Source: a virus
Taxonomy: Duplodnaviria; Heunggongvirae; Uroviricota; Caudoviricetes
Direction: 5' to 3' (one strand)
IMG/VR virus record: IMGVR_UViG_2671181012_000022
Length of the DNA: 42,877 nt
Shown: positions 9,001 through 12,000 of the stretch, one piece after another
Numbering within the stretch: position 1 is the first letter of the stretch
How the letters are laid out: each line of letters begins with the position of its first letter
Program-made: the position numbers

Positions 9001-12000
9001 CATGGCCCACAAACGGCGGATGAGCTGGCACTTATGTTCGGGATTACCTCCCGCCGGGCGAATTCATCGCTGGCCATGGCAATCAGCAAAGGGCGTCTGA
9101 TTCGCGTAAATCAGGGCGGTAAATTTCGTTACTGCATACCGGGCGCTGATTTACCGGCAGAGCCGGAAGCTGCATCCGTAGCGGACACCGATGGTAAAGC
9201 CTTTCCTCAGCCAGCAGGTGTTGCGTTACCAGTCTAGGAAACGACGACACAGGAAGAAATGAAAACAGAAATCGTGGAAGACATTGTGAAGTTACAGCCA
9301 TCGGTCACCGAAACGAAAGTAGATGACCTGATTTTACCATCGCTGCATGTGGCTAACCGCGAGCTGCGCCGGGCAAAAGGTCAGGTTCAGAAGTGGGAGC
9401 GAGTCTGCGCCGCGCTGCGGGAGCTGAACAAGTGCCGGGATATTCTCCGGGATATTACCGCCACCAGAGAACAGCAGCGGTGAGTGGGTGGAAGACGTGG
9501 TGCCGGGCTGAAATTCTGATACTCCGGCAGTGCGCGGGAACAATGAAGGTAAAAAGCATTGGCGCGCTTATCGGACGAACTGAAGCGGCAGTGAGAACGA
9601 AGGCACGGGAGCTGGGCATCAGTATGATGTTACGTGGTGATTTTCACCCGTCGGCAAAATATTCTCAGCGTGATATTGAGCTGGCGCGGCAACTGCATCA
9701 GAGAGGCATGCAAAGAAGGGAAATTGCCAGAAAATTAGGCATGCCGCTGCACATAGTGAATAACTACGTTTATTTCGACAGGAGGGTTCAGGCGTGAGGG
9801 TGAGAATTTATATCGCCGGTCCAATGACGGGATATGAAAATTTCAACCGCGAGGCATTTCACAGGGCGGAAGAAGCACTGAAACGGGAAGGGCATACCGT
9901 TTTAAACCCGGCAGTACTTCCTGACGGGCTGACACAGCCGCACTACATGGATATTTGCATGGCAATGATTCGTTGTGTGGATGCGATTTACATGCTGAAT
10001 GGCTGGCAGCGGTCAGCGGGCGCTAAGGCAGAGCTGGCACTGGCGGAGAAACTGGGGCATGCGGTGATTTATCAGGAGGTGGCTCAATGAGAGAGGTTAA
10101 CTATGAGGCGCTTCGTGAGGCAGCACAAAACTATCAGTCGACGCTGGCGTGGTATCAGGCTATCCCGGACAGCCCAAATGCTGAACGGGATTGTGATGCG
10201 GCTCTTGCTGCGTTTAAGCGTCACATCCGTCATCGGGAAGCGGATATTATCGCTGATTTGCTGGATGGACTGGAAGAAGCAAAATCACAACTCAACGAGC
10301 AACGTGAGTATTACGAAGGTGTTATCTCGGATGGGAGTAAGCGCATTGCTGAACTGGAAGCGCGGGAAGTTCAATTACCGACTCGCTACGACCTTCGATA
10401 TGGACACCCGATAAATGCAGATGAGCGACAAGTCATGATACCTAAAGAAAATGGCAGTTGGCTTTACCTGATTGACCTAGAACACGCATTACGCGTCGCT
10501 GGCATTCGCATCAAAGGAGAGGAGCATGGAAATAAAACCAGAGGATGAGTTAAGCAATATCGTTTTATTTCCGGTAAAAGAGGATGACCCTCGTAATCAG
10601 GTTAATTTTCTTTATGAGCCATCGGAAAGACCATATTGTCATCACGCCTCTGTTCGGGTTGACGAAAAAGAGCGTCAGGTCCGCTGTAAATCTGCGGTGC
10701 AGTTGTGGAGCCGTTTGACTGGATGCTCTCTGTGGCGAAAAGAGAAACCAGACTGGCAGATGATGTAAGGCTATTGCGCCAGGAGGAACAGGAAAGGCGG
10801 AAAAATATAGAAAAGTTAATTCAGATTGAGCGTAACGCGAAAGCGCGGATACGCAGGGCGACAAAATCCAGAACTGAATAAATAAATTTAGCGCTGTAAA
10901 TAAAATCTAATCCTTAACTGGAGGTATATTTATGTTAAATACACAGAAATCCATTAATGCGGAAAAATATAACGAGTGGGCAAGAAAATTCTCTGAGCAG
11001 ATTTTTAAAATTACTGGCAATGAGAATGCGGCAAAAAATGAATTAGAACCGTGGACGCCTGAAGGAGCCGACCCAAATTATTGCTGGAGGGAGGTTGATC
11101 CAGTTGATGCTGCAAATGAAGATATGAGTTATCACAACGATTAATGTCAGGAGGCCGCCCGAAAGGGCGGTAATGAATGGTCACATTATTTAGAAAAAAA
11201 TATCCGCGAAAGAGTAGAACAACAGAATTTCTGTTTCTCATTCTGTTTATCGTGTTGATGATACCGATATCCCCGTTAATCCTAGTCTGGATAATCGGAA
11301 AAATAATTGAGCCAGTTATTGAATTGTATAACGACGTGGTATGGGCGTCATTCAACACACTGCACAATAAAATTAATCCGTATAAGGAAAGCTGATATGG
11401 CACTGACGAAAAAACAACGCGCAGAACTGCGCATGAAGTTCGGTGGTCGCTGTGCTTATTGCGGCTGCGAACTTGGCGAAAAGTGGCATGCAGACCATGT
11501 AAAACCGGTCATTCGTTTTGATGGAAATATGCTTCACCAGGAACGTGACGATATATCCAACATGGTTCCGGCATGCCACCCATGCAATCTGCACAAGCAT
11601 TGCAGTAGTCTGGAAGATTATCGGCGAATTATCAGTGATGGTCGTCGTGAATTCCTTGCGTCCGGGAAAGGCAAAGCGCTGGTTCGTATGGGATTGGTTG
11701 AAATGAAATCTGACCCGGTTGTGTTCTGGTTTGAAAAATATCAAGAAGGGGCTACGGCATGACGACTTTTACCAGAGAGCAGTTAATAGCTCACGCAGAG
11801 GAGACTATTGAAGCACAGAGACTGTGCATACCGGGCACAATCGACCATGACATCATCCGCACATATAAGATGGATATTGCTGTTCTGGAAATCGCACTGG
11901 TATCGCTGGCAGCAGAGCCAGCCGGTAAATTGCATGAATACAAACCAGTGGGATATCAGCGTCTGGTCGATGAGTTATCTGGAGCGGAACGGACTGATAA

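Follow-up and report, generated by a model that had tools for sequence, protein, structure and literature searches.

At the programmed −1 frameshift sites of dnaX and of the lambda G/GT tail chaperone, two overlapping frames meet at a Lys codon and jointly specify a single protein. The locus described here, in a 42,877-nt stretch of phage DNA (hereafter, the window), shares both features. However, unlike the dnaX and lambda G/GT sites, it lacks a slippery heptamer and a stimulatory structure at the junction, and its split is not conserved. The gene itself has a described counterpart in gp17 of Escherichia phage ArgO145 (YP_009907882.1), which shows 98.9% nucleotide identity over the full length, whereas the copy in the window is one A short and split. 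In both phages an ead/Ea22-like neighbor overlaps the start of the gene, but the gene lies near the int end in ArgO145 and between the replication genes and Q in the window and in distant homologs. The E. coli hypothetical-protein clusters P0001/P0009 and PHROG 1621 represent the same gene as the repaired form of the one in the window. Phage lambda can form plaques without the nin region, as seen with the nin5 deletion.

Very probably, the split locus is a single gene of a lambdoid E. coli prophage that a real one-base deletion (A4 to A3, 10688-10690) has inactivated and that is inherited in this form. The disrupted gene is neither a recoding signal nor a pair of genes but an ordinary inherited pseudogene, and the identical allele is already marked as a frameshifted pseudogene in public annotation (RefSeq).

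Reading frames and position of the lesion

The features of the locus are as follows.

10087..10548, + strand: ead/Ea22-like gene (ORF list, RefSeq annotation), sharing its last 23 nt with the start of the disrupted gene
10514..10524, + strand: Shine-Dalgarno-like sequence AAGGAGAGGAG, read from the sequence, its role putative; immediately 5′ of ATG 10526
10526..10881, + strand: whole disrupted gene (alignment to ArgO145 gp17 and ABU 83972, PHROG 1621 match, RefSeq "frameshifted" pseudogene calls on identical alleles)
10526..10768, + strand: ORF of 80 aa that is open in the window (ORF list compared with the intact translation)
10637..10645, + strand: codons for Cys38-His39-His40, the first zinc knuckle (C-x-H; 31-sequence alignment)
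10685..10687, + strand: codon for the invariant Cys54, the last ligand left in the upstream frame (sequence and alignment)
10688..10690, + strand: the lesion, AAA against AAAA in intact copies, a 1-nt homopolymer deletion (alignment, allele counts)
10690..10881, + strand: native residues 56-118 and the stop codon, now in the −1 frame (ORF list, intact translation, alignment, AlphaFold helix 63-117)

The disrupted gene is 356 nt long in the window, whereas intact homologs have 357 nt and encode one 118-aa protein. The 80-aa ORF consists of native residues 1-55 followed by a 25-aa out-of-frame tail (SAVQLWSRLTGCSLWRKEKPDWQMM). In the −1 frame, a TAA stop at 10687-10689 precedes an open stretch that runs from 10690 to the TAA at 10879-10881; this stretch, which the ORF list gives as a 58-aa ORF starting with GTG 10705, encodes Ile56, the invariant Cys57 (10693-10695), Phe64 and the conserved C-terminal helix. 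When the upstream frame is read up to Lys55 (AAA, 10688-10690) and the downstream frame from ATC 10690, the translation is MEIKPEDELS...RQVRCK-ICGAVVEPFDWM...KSRTE, and the 118-aa translation of ArgO145 gp17 is identical to this repaired protein. This bears out the sequence-only reading of the window, according to which two adjacent frames meet here and together give one continuous protein.

The gene is collinear with ArgO145 gp17 and with the copy in ABU 83972 apart from the single absent base. Identity with intact homologs is 98.9-99.7% over 356 nt, with one 1-nt gap, and since the flanks match intact homologs with this gap as the only one, the two-frame arrangement is not a product of chance. 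The gap falls at alignment column 163, where the window has TGT AAA TCT GC and the intact copies have TGT AAA ATC TGC (Cys-Lys-Ile-Cys). The frames had been proposed to meet at 10691-10693; the meeting itself stands, but homology places the lesion one codon earlier, in the A run at 10688-10690.

Distribution of intact and disrupted alleles

Searching phage records and 5,426 complete E. coli genomes at the DNA level gives matches to the gene in 12 phage records and in 1,679 genomes (2,135 places), and nearly all of the matches listed span 357 nt against the 356-nt query. ArgO145 has an intact copy (357 nt, 118 aa), as do about 1,600 E. coli genomes, and the 31 diverse full-length homologs described below also have a single frame. 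Strain MLI109 carries the gene sequence of the window but with AAAA (357 nt, 99.7% identity). By exact matching in the same 5,426 genomes, the AAAA form (31-mer, same local context) occurs at 1,951 places in 1,597 genomes and the AAA form (30-mer, both variants of a nearby SNP) in three genomes: FHI_NMBU_11 (Norway, human), JNEC-KY174 (Japan, clinical) and CFIAFB20190167 (Canada, food). The AAA allele gave no match in metagenome contigs or in GTDB species-representative genomes, which is uninformative rather than contradictory, and a literature search on the name of the strain series yielded nothing that bears on the disrupted locus.

In the three AAA genomes, the records GHT02_RS02120 (FHI_NMBU_11), AC0JY3_RS15385 (JNEC-KY174) and WNL14_RS00055 (CFIAFB20190167) match the 356-nt allele at 100% identity and share its prophage context, and RefSeq labels all of them "hypothetical protein, frameshifted". 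These genomes share one prophage, with 99.9-100% identity over the 15.3-25 kb compared and with gene order and a second pseudogene also in common. Compared with these three records, the window has an identical gene, and its surroundings differ by a few SNPs and by a 198-bp difference in repeat copies; the 33.8 kb aligned with FHI_NMBU_11 contain 11 mismatches and 2 gaps, in addition to the 198-bp difference in a tandem-repeat region. Because its sequence is identical to none of the three genomes, the window counts as a fourth, separate record of the AAA allele. The allele thus recurs in three assemblies sequenced independently, in different countries and projects, and in the window. The most plausible cause of the deletion would be replication slippage in the short A run with loss of one A. 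The AAA allele has been passed on by descent within one prophage lineage.

Sequencing error, recoding and two-gene readings

The sequence-only reading had put forward two alternatives, a pseudogene due to a real frameshift mutation and a one-base error in sequencing. This pair of explanations is supported, with the allele shared by the three RefSeq genomes and the window favoring mutation. A sequencing or assembly error, with a true genome that reads AAAA and an intact gene, would fit a lesion that is a single-base change in a homopolymer, since such changes are the commonest class of long-read error. Yet the A run is merely 3-4 nt long, AAA is called in the Norwegian, Japanese and Canadian assemblies and again in the window, and AAAA is found in the 1,951 other copies that share the 31-nt context exactly. 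Given AAA in all four records, which stem from separate projects, and AAAA in about 1,950 copies with the same context, a random or context-driven basecalling error is unlikely; a context-specific error reproduced across related assemblies is formally conceivable, but an error as the source of the split is quite improbable. The agreement among these sequences strongly suggests that the DNA itself lacks the base. Programmed or leaky −1 ribosomal frameshifting, in which tRNA-Lys would slip from AAA (10688-10690) to UAA with AUC as the next codon, would give the wild-type C-K-I-C and restore the exact wild-type protein, so that the split gene would still yield some full-length product; indeed, Lys codons within A runs are known to be prone to slippage. 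The junction, however, reads C UGU AAA UCU and has no X_XXY_YYZ heptamer, as the sequence-only reading correctly remarked (CUGUAAAUC), folding of 10660-10780 shows no gain in stability over shuffled sequence (z = 0.32), and a strong Shine-Dalgarno-like stimulator is absent upstream. Moreover, the split is confined to one prophage lineage (3 of about 1,600 genomes), and the other copies and distant homologs have a single frame. Lacking a heptamer, a downstream structure and conservation of the split, programmed frameshifting is rejected; recoding of either kind is very improbable, and slippage at the AAA junction, if any, would be at background level.

Two genuine genes, one for an 80-aa zinc-knuckle protein and the other for a 58-aa basic helical protein starting with GTG 10705, would agree with the fact that both ORFs are open in the window. 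However, such a boundary, which the sequence-only reading had named as its own refutation if seen in homologs, occurs in no homolog, all 31 diverse homologs being continuous across the junction, and it would part two invariant zinc ligands. Furthermore, the final 25 aa of the first ORF are read out of frame and correspond to no part of the family's proteins, and a convincing ribosome-binding site is absent before both GTG 10705 and ATG 10723. The continuity of every homologous gene leads to rejection of this reading, the probability of which is close to nil. There is likewise a very slight chance that the AAA allele is still active, either through a low-level −1 slip at U_AAA_U restoring the C-K-I-C protein or through halves acting as separate pieces; if so, the prophage lineage would retain a down-tuned form of a conserved nin-region zinc-ribbon protein. 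As an inherited pseudogene, the locus matters little, being one more case of gene decay in a resident lambdoid prophage. Its practical use lies in correct annotation, as one pseudogene instead of two small genes, and in providing a lineage marker for the prophage.

The intact protein

The protein family is conserved across phages of Enterobacterales, and its role is a question separate from the frameshift. A protein search retrieved 150 relatives, and 31 full-length sequences with 45-97% identity were aligned, originating from Escherichia, Salmonella, Klebsiella, Kluyvera, Yokenella, Erwinia, Serratia, Pluralibacter and Yersinia as well as from metagenomic sources. All of the aligned homologs are single ORFs of about 113-131 aa that are uninterrupted at the junction, and single ORFs are found in more than 10 genera of Enterobacterales. 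Cys38, His40, Cys54, Cys57 and Phe64 are among the invariant residues of this alignment, His39 is variable, and a C-terminal stretch, LR-EE--RR-NIEKLIQIERNAKARIR, is nearly invariant. The ribbon had been described as C-x2-H...C-x2-C. Its first pair is instead C-x-H (Cys38, His40). The second pair is indeed C-x2-C (Cys54, Cys57), but since the deletion separates its cysteines, the pair is present only when the frame is repaired.

An AlphaFold model built on the 31-sequence alignment has a mean pLDDT of 78, with values of 87-95 over helix residues 71-110, and shows short strands (43-46 and 51-54) bearing the ligands, followed by one continuous helix (63-117). By alignment and model, the protein has the four conserved Cys/His ligands and the two β-hairpin knuckles of the zinc ribbon structural class. 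The intact 118-aa protein consists of an acidic N-terminal segment, a small four-ligand zinc ribbon that probably binds zinc and a long, basic, highly conserved helix (about 63-117). From the normal start, the AAA allele would give the 80-aa product with three of the four ligands and without the entire conserved helix. This product is almost certainly non-functional, because the fourth zinc ligand and the whole helix are lost.

Profile searches with the repaired protein give a match to PHROG 1621 ("unknown function"; E = 1.5e-56), residues 1-117 aligning with profile positions 1-120 of 134. In Pfam, the only match is PF08271 Zn_Ribbon_TF (TFIIB zinc ribbon) over residues 36-73, which at 21.5 bits (E = 1.6e-4) is below the 29-bit gathering threshold. 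The NCBIfam search returned no match, PADLOC no meaningful one and the PDB sequence-profile search no significant one. Foldseek against PDB and BFVD yielded nothing under E = 0.26; its matches include a weak one to the TFIIB N-terminal ribbon 1pft (E 0.32, probability 0.72). The gene is named hypothetical protein in every phage record. The likeness to the TFIIB-type zinc ribbon (PF08271, PDB 1pft) consists in four metal ligands on two short β-hairpins. The first knuckle in the window protein, however, is C-x-H and not C-x2-C/H, and its ribbon is followed by a single 55-residue helix and not by the cyclin-like core domains of TFIIB; nothing ties the protein to transcription initiation. As a tentative guess, the intact protein could be a dispensable accessory factor of the nin region, with the ribbon and the basic helix serving to bind nucleic acid or a protein partner.

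Genomic context and other decay

In the window, the genes are arranged in the order DUF1627 (pseudogene), DUF977-type DNA-binding protein, DUF4406, ead/Ea22-like, the disrupted gene, a small ORF, DUF4014, HNH endonuclease, hokD, DUF968, RusA and Q. Prophages of Serratia, Yersinia and Klebsiella (loci L010-L015) have a homolog at about 5001-5387 of the respective locus, after RusA, NinG, NinH or YbcO. These distant homologs hold a fixed slot in the distal nin region, with one small ORF (43-75 aa, YlcG-like in Klebsiella) before a Q-type antiterminator. By this placement, the gene is an accessory gene of the nin region, presumably a delayed-early one. Two family members, P0002 (202 aa, Escherichia marmotae) and P0042 (127 aa, E. 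coli), are in-frame fusions of the zinc-ribbon protein with the N-terminal coiled-coil segment of the ead/Ea22-like protein. These fusions hint that the two proteins may work together.

The gene has been inactivated elsewhere as well. The copy in ABU 83972 is knocked out independently by Q100*, that in CFS3292 has a different 1-nt deletion and is likewise flagged as frameshifted, and P0077 and P0108 are truncated proteins of the family. This repeated inactivation fits the dispensability of the nin region in lambda.

The DUF1627-domain gene (8767-9483, + strand) has an in-frame stop at codon 156 (9232-9234) and is annotated in the same way, as a pseudogene with "internal stop", in the three related RefSeq prophages. 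Together with the disrupted gene, this stop means that the prophage lineage has more than one decayed nin-region gene.

Other parts of the window differ from the related prophages or from their annotation. At 31930-34478 (+ strand), the RefSeq relatives are annotated with "phage portal protein, frameshifted"; in the window this stretch contains two ORFs, 31930-33294 and 33291-34478, with a 4-nt overlap, perhaps no more than a pair of coupled genes. The downstream one of these ORFs has a tandem repeat of about 162 bp (33456-33914), and at this repeat the window is 198 bp (66 codons) shorter than FHI_NMBU_11 and JNEC-KY174. A position-by-position comparison with the same two genomes reveals a cluster of 8 mismatches at 25377-25403 (+ strand), within the ORF 25081-25548, and the BLAST alignment of positions 1-33788 of the window has 2 gap openings. 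The cluster might be a compensating pair of indels that re-frames about 9 codons of a "lysis protein" gene.

The region at about 14328-20929 (+ strand) encodes Q, a DNA methyltransferase, tRNA-Ile/Arg/Arg (about 16677-16926), a second methyltransferase, a stretch of ~1 kb without annotation (about 17948-18970) and a SASA-family esterase. This layout resembles that around stx in Shiga-toxin phages, but the annotation of about 14328-20929 includes no toxin gene. An OmpC porin gene is located at about 41442-42596 (+ strand) among the tail genes, between those for a "phage tail protein" and minor tail protein L.
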